Shown: piece by piece, positions 24,329 through 30,305 of the stretch | Layout of the letters: the number at the start of each line of letters is the position of its first letter | Numbering within the stretch: position 1 is the stretch's first letter | Origin: a virus | Taxonomy: Duplodnaviria; Caudoviricetes | DNA: 64,000 nucleotides | Strand: one strand, 5' to 3' | Virus record (IMG/VR): IMGVR_UViG_3300023053_000001 | Coordinates: 128,001-192,000 of that record | Position numbers and translations under genes: made by a program | The notes under the pieces: model-generated | The model's input: the letters and a program-made list of their open reading frames with translations, nothing else | Databases searched by the model: none | Told to the model about the DNA's origin: nothing

Positions 24329-24371
24329 CATAAACCCCTCCCACCCTTTGCGGGGTGGGAGGGGACTTATG
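24329..24371. terminator. CATA-stem-loop-TATG element 3
   Basis: CATAAACCCCTCCCACCC..GGGTGGGAGGGGACTTATG between convergent genes. Confidence 0.7.
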
Positions 24372-24374
24372 CCG

Positions 24375-24992
24375 TTACTGTGGCGTCCAGCCGTTTTGAC
24401 GCATGAACGCTTCGTACTGGGCGATGACCTGCGTCAGTTCGGAGATTCGTGCGTTGGCAGCCAGCAGGCGGGCCAGGTCGGTTTCACTGTTGGTGATCGC
24501 ATCCTGTCGAGCCTGCATCCAGTTGGCGTGCTGAGCAGCCGTCATGTAGTTATCGCTGGGGGCGACGTTGACTTCCACCGTAGCCTGTACGCCAGTAACA
24601 CTGGCCACAGCCGTGGTGATCTGATCCTTCAGATACGTCAGGTCCATCGAGTCGGGAATCGCACCCATCGAGATACCCATCACCACATGGCTGTAAGCCA
24701 CGTTGTCCATCAGGGGGTAGCCCGTCAGGTAGGTGGTGGGAATGTACATGTTCGGTCGGGTACGCGAAGCCAAGGTGACAATCTTGGCACCGGCAACCTG
24801 ATCGGCCTGGTACTTCTCACGCGGCACGTTGTGCGGCTTGTACACCAGATCGAAGACATCCACACCGAGATCGGTGAAGTCCGCGAAATCACGTACAGCA
24901 ATGCACTCATACACCGAGTTGGCCGGCATCTGCCACGGCGAGGCCACCTGATAGAAACCCACCGCACCGATCTGAGGAATGATCGCAGACAT
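24375..24992 (-). CDS. phiKZ-like conserved hypothetical (likely virion) protein
   Basis: 205 aa, AAGGAG RBS, C-terminal coiled coil, co-transcribed with the upstream structural gene. Confidence 0.65.
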   Translation of the reverse strand: MSAIIPQIGAVGFYQVASPWQMPANSVYECIAVRDFADFTDLGVDVFDLVYKPHNVPREKYQADQVAGAKIVTLASRTRPNMYIPTTYLTGYPLMDNVAYSHVVMGISMGAIPDSMDLTYLKDQITTAVASVTGVQATVEVNVAPSDNYMTAAQHANWMQARQDAITNSETDLARLLAANARISELTQVIAQYEAFMRQNGWTPQ

Positions 24993-25002
24993 CGCTTACT
25001 CC

Positions 25003-27144
25003 TTAGGTCAGTTCGAGGATGTACAGGTCGAACTCGGTATCGGCCACGGCACCGTTGGCGTCAGTTGCACGCACGGTGAGCTTGGTCGGGCCGCCACGAC
25101 GGAAGGTCGCGCGATACACGCCGGTCACCGGATCGATGCTCTGGGCTTCGACGTAGTCGTGCTTGGGCTTGGGCAGGCTGTAGGTGTACGGAGCGGTACC
25201 GCCCAGTGCACGGAACAGTTCCTGGTACTCGTTGCTCTGACTACCGTTCTCCAGCGTGGTCACTCCTTCCACACCCTGCACGGTCACGCGCAGCGGGGAG
25301 CTGGTCACCGGCGGCGAAGCCCGGTTGAAGGACAGCTTGGACACCACCAGGTACTGCACGTTCTGGTAGCTGGAGACCACGTAGATCACCGAGCTACCAT
25401 CAGCACGCTTGCGCGTCAGACGGGTGTAGCCGGCCGGGATGTCGGAGAACTCGGTCATGTCCTCGGCGATCTTCATCAGCGTGTGGAGTTTCTCCACAAA
25501 GCCCTGCGTGATCGGGTCCATGCGGTCATGGTCCAGATGGCTGGTGCTCACGGCGATGTAGTCGGTCCACTGGTCGAAGAACTTGTTCACCCCATCCCGG
25601 TTCTGCGGACCGCCCACGGCCAGCAACGTCACGGTCTTGTAGGAGGTCGGAACCACCGAGTTGACCTTGTCGATGTGGGCGTTGTTGTAAGCGGTACCGA
25701 TGGAGAACAGGCGAGCCAACGGATTGGCGCGAGCCACTTCCACCACCGGCGAGTACAGACCCGGGTCCAGCGTCTTGTTGGGAATCGCGTAGGGATTCCA
25801 CTGCGGGATCAGGATGAACTCGGTGGAGGTGAAGATGTCCGGGAAGATCTCAGCCCATTCCTCACGGGTATGGGTGGAGTTGCCCAGAATCCACTCGATC
25901 AGACGTTCCTTGTAGGCGTCGATGTTGTCACCGGCCGCACCGTAGATCAGCGAACGCCAGTTGGTCGGCAGACGGTAGGTCGGGTCATCCGGATCACGGA
26001 ACTCGAACATCGTCGACTTGGCGATCGTGTAGGGATCGCCGGCGGCCAGCTGCTGCAGCTTCAGGAACACTTCTTCGTCGGTCCGCTTGGCAACCAGCTC
26101 TTCGACTTGACCGCGGGTCTTGAAGAAGTCATCCAGGTTGTCAATCGGTGCCAGATGGGCGAACTCGTATTCGTCGTACTGGGTGGAGAAGGCCGCGTTG
26201 GACATCCACAGCTTGACACGGGCCTTGGCCATGTAACCCGGGCTCGGGTCGGCACGGGCGGCGAGGAACGCATCACCGTTGATGCTCTGCAGCTGCTGCG
26301 GCTGGTCTTCCAGCAAGTAGAAGGTGATCGACTCGGGCAGCCAGATGGTGCCCTGCTGGATCATGGTCGCCACGGTCACATCGTAGATGCGCGTACCGAA
26401 TTCAGCCAGCACCGCCTGACGGAAGATTTCCGTGCTGGCAGTGAAGCTGCCATTCATGGCTTCGTTCCACATCCACGTGCCCATCGTGGCCAGCAGATCG
26501 CCGATGGTCAGGGGCGTATCCACCGCACCGTCGGCGGCCGTGCGCGAGGAGAACACGGTGGCCGTGATGGCCGTGCTGTTGGAACCGGCCACGCCGGCAG
26601 TGAACAGCTCACGGTCACGGGAGAAGGTCTGGCTGCGAACGCTCAGTTCACCCAGCGGGGCAACCTGATGTTCATCGTTGTTGGTCAGCGCACCGAAGGA
26701 CATGAAAGCCTTGCAGCTGAACGTGTCCGCGCCCTCGGGCAGTTCCGGGGTTTCACCACCACCACCGCCGTTACCGTCGGGGTCTTGCACCAGCATGTCG
26801 ATGGCGTAGACGTTGCCGGTACGCACACGCATCTGGATCACGAACGGGTAGTCCGGTTCCAGATTGACGCCGTAGTTGAAGGTCTCACCCGGCTGCAGCT
26901 CGATGCTGTCGTTCCAGGCGTTGGGACCACTCTGGGAGAAGTAGAGCGTGACGATGCTGGCGCCGCGGTTGTCGAACACCGCATGGAAGGTATCGCCGGC
27001 GGCCGGCATCGCATTGTCCGGGGACTGCAGCGTGACCTCGTTGGAGCCAACGACAGCGATGGACCCATTGCTGGAGTTGTAACCCTCCGGCGGAACGTTA
27101 CCGAAGTCATCGGTGAACGCATTGGGGTTCTTGAAAATGTTCAT
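25003..27144 (-). CDS. Virion structural protein with appended N-terminal beta domain and C-terminal Ig-like domain
   Basis: Core begins near KAF..LTNN..VAPLGELS after a GNGGGGG linker. C-terminus GGTAPYTYS..IDPVTG..LTVRATDANG is He_PIG/Ig-like. Confidence 0.65.
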   Translation of the reverse strand: MNIFKNPNAFTDDFGNVPPEGYNSSNGSIAVVGSNEVTLQSPDNAMPAAGDTFHAVFDNRGASIVTLYFSQSGPNAWNDSIELQPGETFNYGVNLEPDYPFVIQMRVRTGNVYAIDMLVQDPDGNGGGGGETPELPEGADTFSCKAFMSFGALTNNDEHQVAPLGELSVRSQTFSRDRELFTAGVAGSNSTAITATVFSSRTAADGAVDTPLTIGDLLATMGTWMWNEAMNGSFTASTEIFRQAVLAEFGTRIYDVTVATMIQQGTIWLPESITFYLLEDQPQQLQSINGDAFLAARADPSPGYMAKARVKLWMSNAAFSTQYDEYEFAHLAPIDNLDDFFKTRGQVEELVAKRTDEEVFLKLQQLAAGDPYTIAKSTMFEFRDPDDPTYRLPTNWRSLIYGAAGDNIDAYKERLIEWILGNSTHTREEWAEIFPDIFTSTEFILIPQWNPYAIPNKTLDPGLYSPVVEVARANPLARLFSIGTAYNNAHIDKVNSVVPTSYKTVTLLAVGGPQNRDGVNKFFDQWTDYIAVSTSHLDHDRMDPITQGFVEKLHTLMKIAEDMTEFSDIPAGYTRLTRKRADGSSVIYVVSSYQNVQYLVVSKLSFNRASPPVTSSPLRVTVQGVEGVTTLENGSQSNEYQELFRALGGTAPYTYSLPKPKHDYVEAQSIDPVTGVYRATFRRGGPTKLTVRATDANGAVADTEFDLYILELT

Positions 27145-27725
27145 GGATTACTCCGGTACGGGGTAGCGGCTGGATAGGACAGGCACTGGTTCAACTCAGA
27201 CGGATACACTCGGCGCATTGCCCGAGCTTTGCTGTCCTTGTAAATCCGGTGGTGATACAAAACGTCAGGCAGGTCAATCACGTTCAAATTGGCAACGTGA
27301 GCGATCTGGGCAATGTCGCCGGCGCAGGGGTAGGGGCGATGATCAATGATGTGGATGCGCCGATATACAGGAAGGTGGTGCCGCTGGTGACCTGGACGGT
27401 TACCCACACCACAATGTTCCTGCTCTTTCGGAAAGACAGCATCGGGCCATGACTGCAAAGCCTTTGCGATCACCGCAAAGGCGCTCGGTTCGATGTAATC
27501 GTCGTCATCAACATATGTCACGTATGGCGCAGAGCCTTGCTGGTAAGCCAGCCAGCGCCCTTTGCCGATATGTCCGTCCACCCCTGCTTGCACGAACAAC
27601 TGAACTGGTACTGGCGATTGAGAGATCGCCAAGGAGATACTATCCAAGCACTGCAGTACCCAAGCCTTGGGAGTCGAAGGACTCACGAGCACATGCACGT
27701 CTATTGACAAGGATTGGTCGTACAT
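27141..27725 (-). CDS. GT-A fold family 2 glycosyltransferase
   Basis: IDVHVLV start strand, GHIGKGR..A..QGSAPYVTYVDDDDYIEP (DxD motif). Likely start MYDQS at 27725. Stop overlaps the next gene's start (ATGA). Confidence 0.75.
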   Translation of the reverse strand: MYDQSLSIDVHVLVSPSTPKAWVLQCLDSISLAISQSPVPVQLFVQAGVDGHIGKGRWLAYQQGSAPYVTYVDDDDYIEPSAFAVIAKALQSWPDAVFPKEQEHCGVGNRPGHQRHHLPVYRRIHIIDHRPYPCAGDIAQIAHVANLNVIDLPDVLYHHRIYKDSKARAMRRVYPSELNQCLSYPAATPYRSNP

Positions 27726-27771
27726 AGATAGCCCTCCACCGTCTATACCATTAATCGCTTCGAGGCCCACA

Positions 27772-28371
27772 ATGCCTTTCCTCGGTATTTTCACCGCACT
27801 GGTAAGGCTCTTCTGGCCCTTCATCAAAGAGTCTCTGCTCAAAGATGGAACGCTGAAGGACTTCATCAGTAAGAATCGAACCACGTGCATTTGGCTGGCA
27901 ATGATGCTGGTCATGCTCTTGGGTCAGGGCTACCTGTTTCACGAAGCACACTCCGCGCGCATCATCACTGCCCGCACAGTGACGCAGATGAATCAGATGA
28001 CGGTCAACCACACCTTGCTCCGTCAGCAGTACACCATGTTGGAAACCGACCGTAATGCGTACCGGGACAAGGTCAAAGACCTGCAGAACCAGTATGACTT
28101 GCTTGAGGCCACGCATGGCGAGATGTCGGCTGATAACGAACGCTACGAACGCATCCTGCGTGCCTGTGGCGTGGATTTGAAGTTCGAAGGTACTACCCCG
28201 CCCCAATGTCGAGCCCGCGCTGCACCAGCGCGTCCGAAGCCTGCCCGGCCCCGTCCGGTCAGCCCACCCATCACTGAAATCCCGGAACACCAACCGGAGC
28301 CTGCCAAGAAGCCTTCCGCTTGGGAGCGACTCAAGGGCATTTTCAGCCGCAAGGATAAGGACGGCGAATGA
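27772..28371 (+). CDS. Putative inner-membrane spanin (Rz-like)
   Basis: N-terminal hydrophobic segments, a long coiled coil, two Cys and a Pro-rich tail; ATGA overlap with a lipoprotein gene. Confidence 0.65.
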   Translation: MPFLGIFTALVRLFWPFIKESLLKDGTLKDFISKNRTTCIWLAMMLVMLLGQGYLFHEAHSARIITARTVTQMNQMTVNHTLLRQQYTMLETDRNAYRDKVKDLQNQYDLLEATHGEMSADNERYERILRACGVDLKFEGTTPPQCRARAAPARPKPARPRPVSPPITEIPEHQPEPAKKPSAWERLKGIFSRKDKDGE

Positions 28372-28703
28372 AATCCACCGCCAGTGCCTCATTGCTCGTT
28401 GCCATCCTCCTGTTGACCGGGTGTGTTGGGTACTTCCATATCGGAGGTTCCAGCACCCGGCCCAACAAGGTGGAGATTCGCTACGGGCAATCCCCCGCAC
28501 CCGTGTCTCGCTGTCCACCCTACCAGCCTCCGGCTGATAAGGAATGGCCGGCCTACCCGCAGTTTGTTGGGACCGAGTCCGATGATGAGATCATCGATGC
28601 TCTGGGCCATGAACTGGTTGCCCTTCATCAACGTCATCGTGACTACGTGCAGGATAACCAGAAGAAGTATCAAGAGTACGTCCAGCGTTGCATGTCACAG
28701 TAA
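28368..28703 (+). CDS. Putative outer-membrane spanin lipoprotein (Rz1-like)
   Basis: Signal peptide with lipobox LLTGC, Pro-rich segment, additional Cys residues. Confidence 0.7.
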   Translation: MKSTASASLLVAILLLTGCVGYFHIGGSSTRPNKVEIRYGQSPAPVSRCPPYQPPADKEWPAYPQFVGTESDDEIIDALGHELVALHQRHRDYVQDNQKKYQEYVQRCMSQ

Positions 28704-28751: not shown

Positions 28752-30305
28752 ATGTCCACCGAAGCCAAGCCCGCCCTGAATGCGGTATTTTACACCGACG
28801 GCGGCTACCGCCAGACCGTCCAATTGGGCGGCTGGGCCCTGCACGGTTACACCTACACCGATGAAGTGCCCAAGACGGGTACTGGCCACAAGACGGCGTA
28901 CCTGACCCGTAAGGGTTACCTGACCAACACCGAAGTGCATGAAAAGAAGATCCCTGAAGAGGAGATCGCCAAGCACACCGACATCGTGGTCCAGGAATAC
29001 GTCAGCTCCTTCGGTAGCCTGCTGCCGCCGGTCACCAACAACACGGCCGAACTGCATGCCTTCACCAAGGCACTGGAGTTCACGATCGAGAAGAAGATCG
29101 AGAACGTGATGTTGCGCATCGACAGCAAGTACGTGATGGACAACTATCGCGACCAGATGGACAAGTGGCGTGCCAACAACTGGCTGAAGGCCGATGGCCA
29201 ACCGCCGGCGAACGTGGATATGTGGAAGCGCGCTGCGGAACTGAAAGCACAGCTGCGCGAAGCCGGTATCAAGATCGACATGCTCTGGGTCAAGGGGCAT
29301 TCGGGTGAGTTCGGCAATGACATGGTGGATAAGTATTGCACCCGTTCCATGTTGGCTGCGGCCAACGGTACGCCGGTGGAATACCATCAGGTCTCCAGCG
29401 CCAAGGGCTTCTGGTCGCGCAAGACCGATCGCTCGCGCATGGTGCATCTGCCCCACTGGTACTTCCATGCCCTCAACCGTGACGGGTACAAAACCCCGGA
29501 CGGTCGCACCATCTACTACACCGGTTTCTCCGGCAAGGGTGGCGCGAAGAAGGATGGCGATGACAAGAAGGAAGTCGATCCGCTGGAACTGTTCGGTAAG
29601 CGCGTGTCTGACGCTCGCTTCTCCGTGGCATACCTGCGCGAAGGCGACCCGGTCATGGAGTGCCTGCGTGAGACCTGCATCGAGATGGCCGAAGGTCGTT
29701 ACTTGGGTTTGATGGTGGGAGAGCTGCGTAACATCCTGTCTTCTACCCATTATCTGGAGATCGAAGAATTCGGTGCCAAGTTGCTCAAGCGCGATCATGC
29801 GCGCCTGCGACTGAGTAACGTCGTCTCCGCCGGTGAGGAGGTTTTGCTGACCCGTGAGATTCGACCGGCACGCCTTGCGTACTCGGCGATCGACACGCTC
29901 AATGCACTCGAGCGCGTACTGGCGGCACATGTGGAAAAGCCCAATCAAGGTGCTATGCGCAGCACTGAGATTACGGACATACTTTATGAGACTGACGGTA
30001 GCAAGAAGAAAAGCGCTGTCAAGCTCAAAAGCCACATCTCCTCTACCCTACGGTCGTTGGATGTGAAAGCCGGGTATGCCGTACGTGCTGAAGATCACGC
30101 AGAATTCACACTCAAACTGACACTGGGTTTGGACCTGCCGGATCGAAACACGTTGGCTGCGCTGGCTAGCGAGGGGGTGCGGGCTTGGGTTGTGACTTGG
30201 CCCGAATCCGCAGAAGCTATTCGCTATGCAACCATTGTCGACTCGGACGGAGATATTGGACTGTGGTGTGCTGCCTACTCCAATCTCCAACTGATCAAGC
30301 CCTAG
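28752..30305 (+). CDS. rnhA: Ribonuclease HI with long C-terminal extension
   Basis: FYTDGG, TNNTAELHA, IDSKYV, WVKGHSG..GNDMVD motifs. Confidence 0.9.
   Translation: MSTEAKPALNAVFYTDGGYRQTVQLGGWALHGYTYTDEVPKTGTGHKTAYLTRKGYLTNTEVHEKKIPEEEIAKHTDIVVQEYVSSFGSLLPPVTNNTAELHAFTKALEFTIEKKIENVMLRIDSKYVMDNYRDQMDKWRANNWLKADGQPPANVDMWKRAAELKAQLREAGIKIDMLWVKGHSGEFGNDMVDKYCTRSMLAAANGTPVEYHQVSSAKGFWSRKTDRSRMVHLPHWYFHALNRDGYKTPDGRTIYYTGFSGKGGAKKDGDDKKEVDPLELFGKRVSDARFSVAYLREGDPVMECLRETCIEMAEGRYLGLMVGELRNILSSTHYLEIEEFGAKLLKRDHARLRLSNVVSAGEEVLLTREIRPARLAYSAIDTLNALERVLAAHVEKPNQGAMRSTEITDILYETDGSKKKSAVKLKSHISSTLRSLDVKAGYAVRAEDHAEFTLKLTLGLDLPDRNTLAALASEGVRAWVVTWPESAEAIRYATIVDSDGDIGLWCAAYSNLQLIKP

Follow-up and report, generated by a model that had tools for sequence, protein, structure and literature searches.

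The locus described here raises the question of why a phage should carry a single small glycosyltransferase (GT) whose gene overlaps that of a virion protein, and what such an enzyme would modify. It occupies positions 25,003 to 27,725 of a 64,000-nt stretch of phage DNA (the window, to which plain coordinates refer), which corresponds to positions 128,001 to 192,000 of IMG/VR virus record IMGVR_UViG_3300023053_000001. The record is a complete virus of 268,458 bp with direct terminal repeats, identified from its genes as a phiKZ-like jumbo phage (chimallivirus), and its hosts are probably Gram-negative bacteria of the Xanthomonadales. Our comparative data indicated that the GT is tied to a jelly-roll domain at the extreme N-terminus of the virion protein (N-terminal domain, ND) in phages of quite different kinds, and that it may glycosylate the protein that carries this domain.

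The original prediction for this locus was a compact 194-codon open reading frame (ORF) with a YVDDDD motif, a GT2 enzyme at the head of a minus-strand structural operon, with its TGA overlapping the ATG of the virion protein gene. The frame, the motif, the overlap (as ATGA) and an operon of three genes with a terminator-like hairpin at its end were all recovered (Table 1). The GT2 identity stood with respect to the GT-A fold and the DXD motif; the Pfam score of the window protein was sub-threshold (PF00535, Glycos_transf_2; 18.0 bits against a cut-off of 23.3; E 0.003), and our assignment is based on fold and family and not on that score. An exhaustive HMMER search delimited a family of short GTs (about 170–210 aa; 347 representative clusters), of which 79 of 85 members matched PF00535 (E ≤ 0.01; best, 1.8e-11), and the window protein matched phrog_19440 (E 8e-16). 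Its AlphaFold2 (AF2) model, built on 14 homologues, was wholly globular over the 194 residues, with a predicted local distance difference test score (pLDDT) of 90 and a predicted template modeling score (pTM) of 0.87. The top 50 PDB matches of this model in Foldseek were all GT-A/GT2 enzymes (E 3e-9 to 1e-6; TM-score, 0.57–0.71), the structural matches included WrtF, TarS, K4CP, and SpsA (E 3e-9 to 1e-7) as well as TarP, RmlT, and GalT1, and a glycosyltransferase of mycobacteriophage Che8 was among the matches in the viral models of BFVD (E 4e-10). The family profile, when compared with PDB sequences, matched 3bcv, GalT1, and TarS. Solved GT2 enzymes (Staphylococcus aureus TarS and TarP, Bacillus subtilis SpsA, WrtF, Escherichia coli K4CP, and Streptococcus pneumoniae GalT1) have the Rossmann-like GT-A fold, the DXD motif, and the G-x-x-R ... 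DDD pattern in common with the window GT, whereas their identity to it is 11–17% and it is about 60–100 residues shorter than typical catalytic domains.

The full motif, YVTYVDDDDY, includes VDDDD at residues 72–76, which aligned with the DxDD of TarS, 3bcv, and GalT1. Among the 85 family members, D9, D73, D75, and D76 were invariant and G54, R57, R123, and Y157 were invariant or nearly so, clades without ND included; D137 is a candidate catalytic base. The invariance of the metal/nucleotide-sugar motif argues that catalysis has been retained, and the modeled 194-aa protein is clearly a minimal GT-A (GT2-like) enzyme with an intact DXD site. The GT is also unusually short (184–199 aa) and lacks the usual acceptor subdomain. 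The window GT is the only GT2-like gene of the 268-kb genome, in which no GT1, epimerase, or nucleotidyltransferase (NTP-transferase) genes were found; with no sugar-activation genes in the phage, the donor sugar must be the host's. Signs of a GtrB-type enzyme were not found, neither C-terminal membrane helices nor GtrA/GtrC partners, and there were no Gtr-like matches among the neighbors. Some family members, all without ND, are fused double-GT proteins (413–449 aa) or are encoded as tandem GT genes (loci L038:3702-4873 and L053:4348-5501; proteins P0081, P0085, P0097, P0161, and P0162), and one such tandem pair was located in Lysobacter enzymogenes.

The partner, a decorated virion protein in the original prediction, could be specified as a homologue of phiKZ gp157, a brace-ring protein of the baseplate. 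Its core matched phrog_3293 (E 3e-117), and tblastn recovered core homologues in 289 isolate-phage records, including 201phi2-1 gp243 (E 2e-65), which is annotated as "similar to phiKZ gp157" and is a virion protein by mass spectrometry. The counterpart of the third gene of the operon, 201phi2-1 gp245, is annotated as similar to phiKZ gp161. Cryo-electron microscopy of phiKZ placed 18 gp157 dimers (36 copies) in a ring bracing the outer periphery of the baseplate and identified gp161 as the "horn" of an inner baseplate ring (2026 structural atlas, PMC13250141). By analogy, the window protein would sit in the outer baseplate ring of its virion, and the predicted operon would comprise the GT, the baseplate brace, and the baseplate horn. 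The local gene order is also that of phiKZ-type phages (RNase H gp155, the gp156 region with small genes, gp157, and gp161). The phiKZ-type gp157 proteins, however, are about 430–450 aa long, without ND and without an upstream GT, whereas the window protein adds ND and a linker at its N-terminus and a domain of about 100 aa at its C-terminus. This C-terminal domain, which had no Pfam match, is common to Xanthomonas phage RTH11 and not to phiKZ/PhiPA3-type homologues. In two metagenomic chimalliviruses (L005:6558-8891 and L007:6558-8882), a further PKD domain separates ND from the core, and domain accretion thus appears to favor the N-terminal end of the brace-ring protein.

The AF2 model of ND (pLDDT, 88.6) showed an eight-stranded jelly-roll followed by a disordered Gly/Pro linker, of which residues 126–134 had a pLDDT below 50. 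In structure comparison (VIA), ND reached Z 9.4 with PirA, Z 8.6 with CBM51 (residues 1–122), and Z 7–8 with many carbohydrate-binding modules (CBMs), scores that fall in a range also reached between unrelated jelly-rolls; the jelly-roll domains of carbohydrate esterases were further structural neighbors. Foldseek returned the RetS sensor domain, the receptor-binding domain RBD1 of CDTb, and CBM61, and the ESM Atlas returned NPCBM and CBM35 clusters. The predicted fold of ND is thus CBM-like; the 713-aa protein, ND included, had no Pfam family at E ≤ 0.1 and belonged to no described CBM family. The ND signature can be written as M-x-N-[IL]-L-x-x-P-x-x-W-x-D ... P-P-x-x-W-x-G-x-x-Y ... Y-x-x-D-x-x-L-[TS]-P, in which N2, P18, and Y113 are invariant and W22, G50, D116, [T/S]121, and P122 are nearly so; the window copy, the only ND of its genome, has Tyr in place of W22 and Asp in place of T121.

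Placement of the GT in relatives was not random. In the close GT clade, hidden Markov model scans placed ND immediately downstream of the GT wherever sequence beyond the GT was available (the window and loci L004, L005, L007, L010-L013, L015, L016, L019, L022, L023, L027, L028, and L049; seven of these were left out of ND model building, and one more ND was recognized by eye). The GT stop overlapped the ND start by 4–41 nt in all 19 distinct loci, and GGAG or GAGG lay upstream of the ND start in most of them. The relation also held in the reverse direction: an ND-profile search of about 800 genomes from the class and order of a prophage host, described below, returned four ND loci, one of them already known, and the GT was immediately upstream in each. 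In metagenomic chimalliviruses, GT homologues of 42–63% identity occupied the corresponding position and overlapped a gp157 gene with ND at its start. Outside the chimalliviruses, homologues of 41–49% identity were found in quite different phages. In P22-like phages, the GT-ND pair lies between the small and large terminase genes (TerS-GT-ND-TerL-portal), and one copy belongs to a prophage of the cultured Rhodanobacter caeni JCM 16242; the pair was also found between a head-closure gene and a minor-coat gene. All of these settings are late morphogenesis clusters.

ND was always at the extreme N-terminus, and the rest of the protein varied by locus. It was the gp157 core, Big_9 together with a conserved domain of 130 aa, or some other sequence, and in a stand-alone protein of 141 aa nothing followed ND. 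A protein-atlas search with the P22-like ND protein that has the conserved C-terminal 130 aa gave generic Ig/cadherin-like leads only, below 0.9, and a profile search for longer ND proteins gave four matches, all of known architectures, the word-based search being insensitive for the fast-evolving ND. Conversely, ND was absent from all 289 isolate-phage gp157 homologues, which align only from about residue 139 on. As judged from these gene arrangements, the GT is linked to ND and not to gp157 as such, and the two probably form a portable two-part cassette that has been added in frame to the 5′ ends of various late or virion genes.

The history of the pair is consistent with this picture. Xanthomonas phages RTH11 and LucasX, which are the nearest isolates, share the neighborhood and lack both GT and ND, and in a gp157-core tree rooted with 201phi2-1, the GT/ND-negative RTH11 branched inside the GT/ND-positive group (97/96 support), which indicates that the pair was gained or lost as one unit. 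Pairwise identities of GT and ND co-varied (Mantel r, 0.64; none of 5,000 permutations as high). The backbone of the GT tree was unresolved and fits one or several chimallivirus acquisitions alike, and the RNase H tree was also unresolved. Megablast of the region against phage isolates gave no match, and among 50,697 records the close GT clade was found in none and a distant GT relative in only one.

Three further observations concern the pair and its distant kin. The single isolate, Xanthomonas phage Xoo-sp13 (MN047793.1, 218104-218688; locus L003), lacks ND; its GT relative comes after an ORF of 3,245 aa, overlaps an ORF of 219 aa at the end of the latter, and has a carbamoyltransferase gene a few genes away. 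One genome of the order Xanthomonadales (G618) carries two GT-ND cassettes on different contigs (L057 and L059), with ND proteins in open frames of 460 and 244 aa; because these lengths differ, the cassettes probably lie in two prophages. In a distant GT clade (L020:6013-8471 and L034:3352-4376; about 33–43% identity over part of the protein), the GT overlaps the downstream ORF by 1–4 nt, and the two downstream ORFs begin with a common domain of about 120 aa that is not ND (blastp, 1e-8), which suggests that a small GT with a cognate N-terminal domain is a more general design.

Codon usage also bears on the age of the link. The original prediction had noted more A/T-ending codons in the GT gene than in its neighbors and had read them as a sign of recent acquisition. 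The difference itself was confirmed (GC content at third codon positions, GC3, of 0.605 in the GT gene and 0.82 in the virion gene, 0.83 in ND), and GC3 is as low in about a quarter of the long open frames of the window, in a crude list that includes some antisense frames. Recent acquisition was rejected: the same gap recurs in relatives of only 42–60% identity (GT/structural gene, 0.62/0.82, 0.72/0.86, and 0.55/0.83), and synteny is conserved. As these comparisons indicate, the GT-ND link is old and not recent.

An intact transferase tied in both directions to ND, across unrelated phages and in late operons, is most simply explained if the GT acts on the ND-bearing protein. We therefore favor the reading that the GT glycosylates this virion protein, to which we would give nearly, though not quite, an even chance. 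The GT would be made late, in the cytoplasm, from the same mRNA as the ND protein and by coupled translation. Host nucleotide-sugar is proposed as the donor because the phage encodes no sugar-activation genes, and the sugar would be moved to the ND-bearing protein, on ND itself or on the following [S/T]-P-rich linker. Transfer would precede baseplate assembly, and finished particles would present a sugar-bearing jelly-roll at the baseplate rim. A more specific form, which we put forward tentatively and with more doubt than the reading itself, is that GT-ND is a self-contained, horizontally mobile "glyco-tag": the GT would recognize the ND fold and glycosylate a defined site, and any virion protein gaining the cassette at its 5′ end would become a glycoprotein. 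The idea of virion self-glycosylation in the original prediction thus stands in part. A GT-like enzyme is indeed coupled to a virion protein, and its partner is ND and not gp157 or its Ser/Thr/Asn-containing linkers as such. The comparative evidence is strong, and from it we infer the whole of the biochemistry, that is, GT activity and glycosylation, the ND protein as acceptor, the site, and the sugar.

Several points weigh against glycosylation of the ND protein. The CBM-like fold of ND makes sugar binding possible in place of sugar carrying. Adjacent genes co-inherit, and co-variation and co-occurrence prove a functional link, not an enzyme-substrate relation; moreover, gene overlaps occur often in the late operons of phages, irrespective of what the genes do. 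ND was found to lack a Ser/Thr tract of the kind that serves as acceptor in known phage systems. The T/S121-P122 position, where the hydroxyl is best conserved (16 of 18 sequences), was considered as a universal acceptor and is weakened as such, since the window protein has Asp there. The window ND is also the most divergent copy, scoring 12.5–22 bits against models built without its near kin, whereas the NDs of L004, L022, L005, and L007 scored 41–71 bits in such tests; its homology is secured via L004 and L022 (40% identity; tblastn, 1e-18). N-x-S/T sequons were tried as a further acceptor candidate, and those in the window ND (residues 23, 26, and 78) are at positions not conserved across the family. 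Prediction of a GT + ND complex returned a score of 0.00, that is, no answer, which counts neither for nor against binding.

The CBM-like fold is also the basis of the main rival explanation, in which ND is a lectin-like (CBM-type) virion adhesin and the GT is its stoichiometric partner and not its modifier. In variants of this scheme, the GT docks on ND and is borne by the particle or built into it, or GT and ND form a split "catalytic + lectin" enzyme as in polypeptide GalNAc-transferases. The best resemblances of ND, to carbohydrate-binding and sensor domains (CBM51, CBM35, CBM61, RetS, and CDTb RBD1), are what such an adhesin would show; the short GT without its acceptor subdomain and the overlapping translation, typical for complex subunits, also fit, and the baseplate rim is where host glycans are met. 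The fold matches are nevertheless middling (best Z 9.4, most 7–8.6) and place ND in no CBM sequence family, a virion-borne transferase would have no obvious use outside the cell, where there are no nucleotide-sugars, and the lower GC3 of the GT relative to ND suggests lower, not equal, expression. We consider this explanation unlikely.

Another use of a sugar-binding ND would be receptor masking, in which the GT alters a host surface glycan precursor (lipopolysaccharide O-unit or exopolysaccharide) that ND recognizes, so that progeny are kept from sticking to debris or infected cells. Among enzymes of solved structure, the closest relatives of the GT have teichoic acid, O-antigen, or capsule intermediates as substrates (TarS, TarP, WrtF, K4CP, and RmlT), phage GTs that alter host glycans are established (seroconversion), and ND is CBM-like. 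The gene is, however, always in late morphogenesis operons, even between TerS and TerL of temperate phages, and is thus not placed for lysogen expression; in a lytic jumbo phage, a new glycan made late in infection would hardly have time to reach the surface, the protein has no membrane segments and no GtrA/GtrC-type partners, and the occurrence of ND as the very next codons in 19 of 19 loci is left unexplained. Masking of this kind seems decidedly improbable to us.

Strict adjacency to ND, coupled translation, and small size would also be expected of a GT-fold protein without transferase function that serves as a folding or assembly chaperone for ND; the DXD aspartates and the other active-site residues conserved in the 85 relatives, even in clades without ND, are typical of retained catalysis, and we regard a chaperone as very unlikely. 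A role of the GT in modifying phage DNA or a nucleotide, with its place beside a baseplate gene being incidental, is exceedingly improbable. Phage GTs that glycosylate DNA are well known; against such a role here, GT and ND are linked whichever of the two is searched for and in unrelated phages, the GT was found unaccompanied by further genes for sugar or base modification (in agreement with the original prediction, which saw no nucleotide-modification genes nearby), and chimallivirus DNA lies inside the phage nucleus, for import into which nothing in the GT protein gives any suggestion.

The layout of the locus is given in Table 1. The minus-strand operon runs from the GT through the gp157 homologue to the gp161 homologue. 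The GT starts at an ATG with GGAGG 6 nt upstream; a longer form starting at the ATG at 27914 was rejected, as the aligned homologues all begin at the MYDQ... position. A GGAG lies 7–10 nt upstream of the ND-gp157 start, within the 3′ end of the GT gene. The 46-bp divergent region presumably holds the promoter of the GT operon. No sigma-70-like site was found in it, as expected because a chimallivirus uses its own RNA polymerases.

Table 1. Features of the GT-ND locus, in window coordinates
Feature	Position	Strand	Basis or remark
Intrinsic-terminator-like hairpin, 12 pairs (10 G-C), then T-run	24335..24364	-	Closes the three-gene operon
Homologue of phiKZ gp161 (DUF7194), last operon gene	24375..24992	-	PF23824, E 3e-66
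713-aa virion protein gene (ND + gp157 homologue)	25003..27144	-	
Extra C-terminal domain, ~100 aa, residues 611-713, plus stop codon	25003..25314	-	Alignment, tblastn match extents
gp157-type core, residues ~143-610	25315..26718	-	phrog_3293, tblastn
Gly/Pro-rich flexible linker, residues 126-142 (GGGGGETPELPEGADTF)	26719..26769	-	Low pLDDT
ND, N-terminal jelly-roll domain, residues 1-125 of the 713-aa protein	26770..27144	-	AF2 model
ATGA stop/start overlap, GT TGA with ATG of the ND-gp157 gene	27141..27144	-	
Minimal GT-A (GT2-like) glycosyltransferase, 194 aa	27141..27725	-	Fold, DXD motif, family matches
Intergenic region, 46 bp, divergent between GT operon (-) and spanin-like gene pair (+)	27726..27771	.	

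Divergent from the GT operon are two genes with an ATGA overlap, 27772-28371 (+) and 28368-28703 (+). The first product (199 aa) is hydrophobic in an N-terminal segment, resembles a coiled coil in its middle, and ends in a Pro-rich tail, and the second (111 aa) begins with a lipoprotein signal containing the lipobox LLTGC. Judged by these features, the genes look like an i-spanin/o-spanin pair at the position of the phiKZ gp156 region; PHROGs gave only "unknown function". They are followed by a gene for a 517-aa RNase H-domain protein, 28752-30305 (+), a homologue of phiKZ gp155 and 201phi2-1 gp240 (phrog_3265, E 2e-119), which was syntenic in all relatives examined.

To our knowledge, mycobacteriophages are the only phages with demonstrated glycosylation of the particle, with hints for a few others. 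In mycobacteriophages, it alters recognition of the particle by antibodies. Among eukaryotic viruses, the capsid of chlorovirus PBCV-1 is glycosylated on Vp54 with virus-encoded GTs such as A064R. PBCV-1 resembles the present case in pairing a viral GT-A enzyme with a jelly-roll structural protein as glycan carrier, and differs from it in using a multi-enzyme pathway in which enzyme gene and acceptor domain are no mobile, translationally coupled pair. As described in PMC12619734, mycobacteriophage GTs glycosylate virion proteins (Che8, Corndog, and Myrna), and the acceptors are Ser/Thr-rich C-terminal extensions on capsid and tail-tube subunits, with several GTs building the glycan. The two systems are alike in having phage GT-A enzymes, encoded among late or structural genes, whose proven or presumed substrates are structural proteins of the same phage, modified in the cytoplasm, and the fold of the window GT matches that of the Che8 GT. 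They differ in that the mycobacteriophage hosts are Actinobacteria, whereas the window phage infects Gram-negatives, probably Xanthomonadales; the window has a single 194-aa GT, and its predicted partner is a folded N-terminal jelly-roll on a baseplate protein with no Ser/Thr-rich C-terminal extension. Glycoproteins have been detected in the Xanthomonas jumbo phage XacN1 (PMC5852040). Four features are new here: the GT is single and minimal, its partner domain is folded and portable, the carrier is a predicted baseplate-rim protein of a jumbo phage that forms a nucleus, and the pair recurs in P22-like phages.

If the GT does glycosylate the ND-bearing protein, jumbo phages that form a nucleus, and with them P22-like phages of Gram-negative hosts, would join the phages in which virion proteins are sugar-coated. 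As a glyco-tag, the pair would be the first system for protein glycosylation to be described in chimalliviruses and in phages with Gram-negative hosts. Because R. caeni JCM 16242 is in culture, its prophage offers a direct way to test the hypothesis. The acceptor logic would also be new, with a folded, transferable domain replacing a Ser/Thr tail, and an enzyme of 190 aa with a cognate domain of 125 aa would be an attractive minimal, orthogonal pair for protein tagging. For the phages themselves, a glycan on the outermost part of the baseplate could influence how the particle adsorbs, its host range, and its recognition by host and animal defenses.

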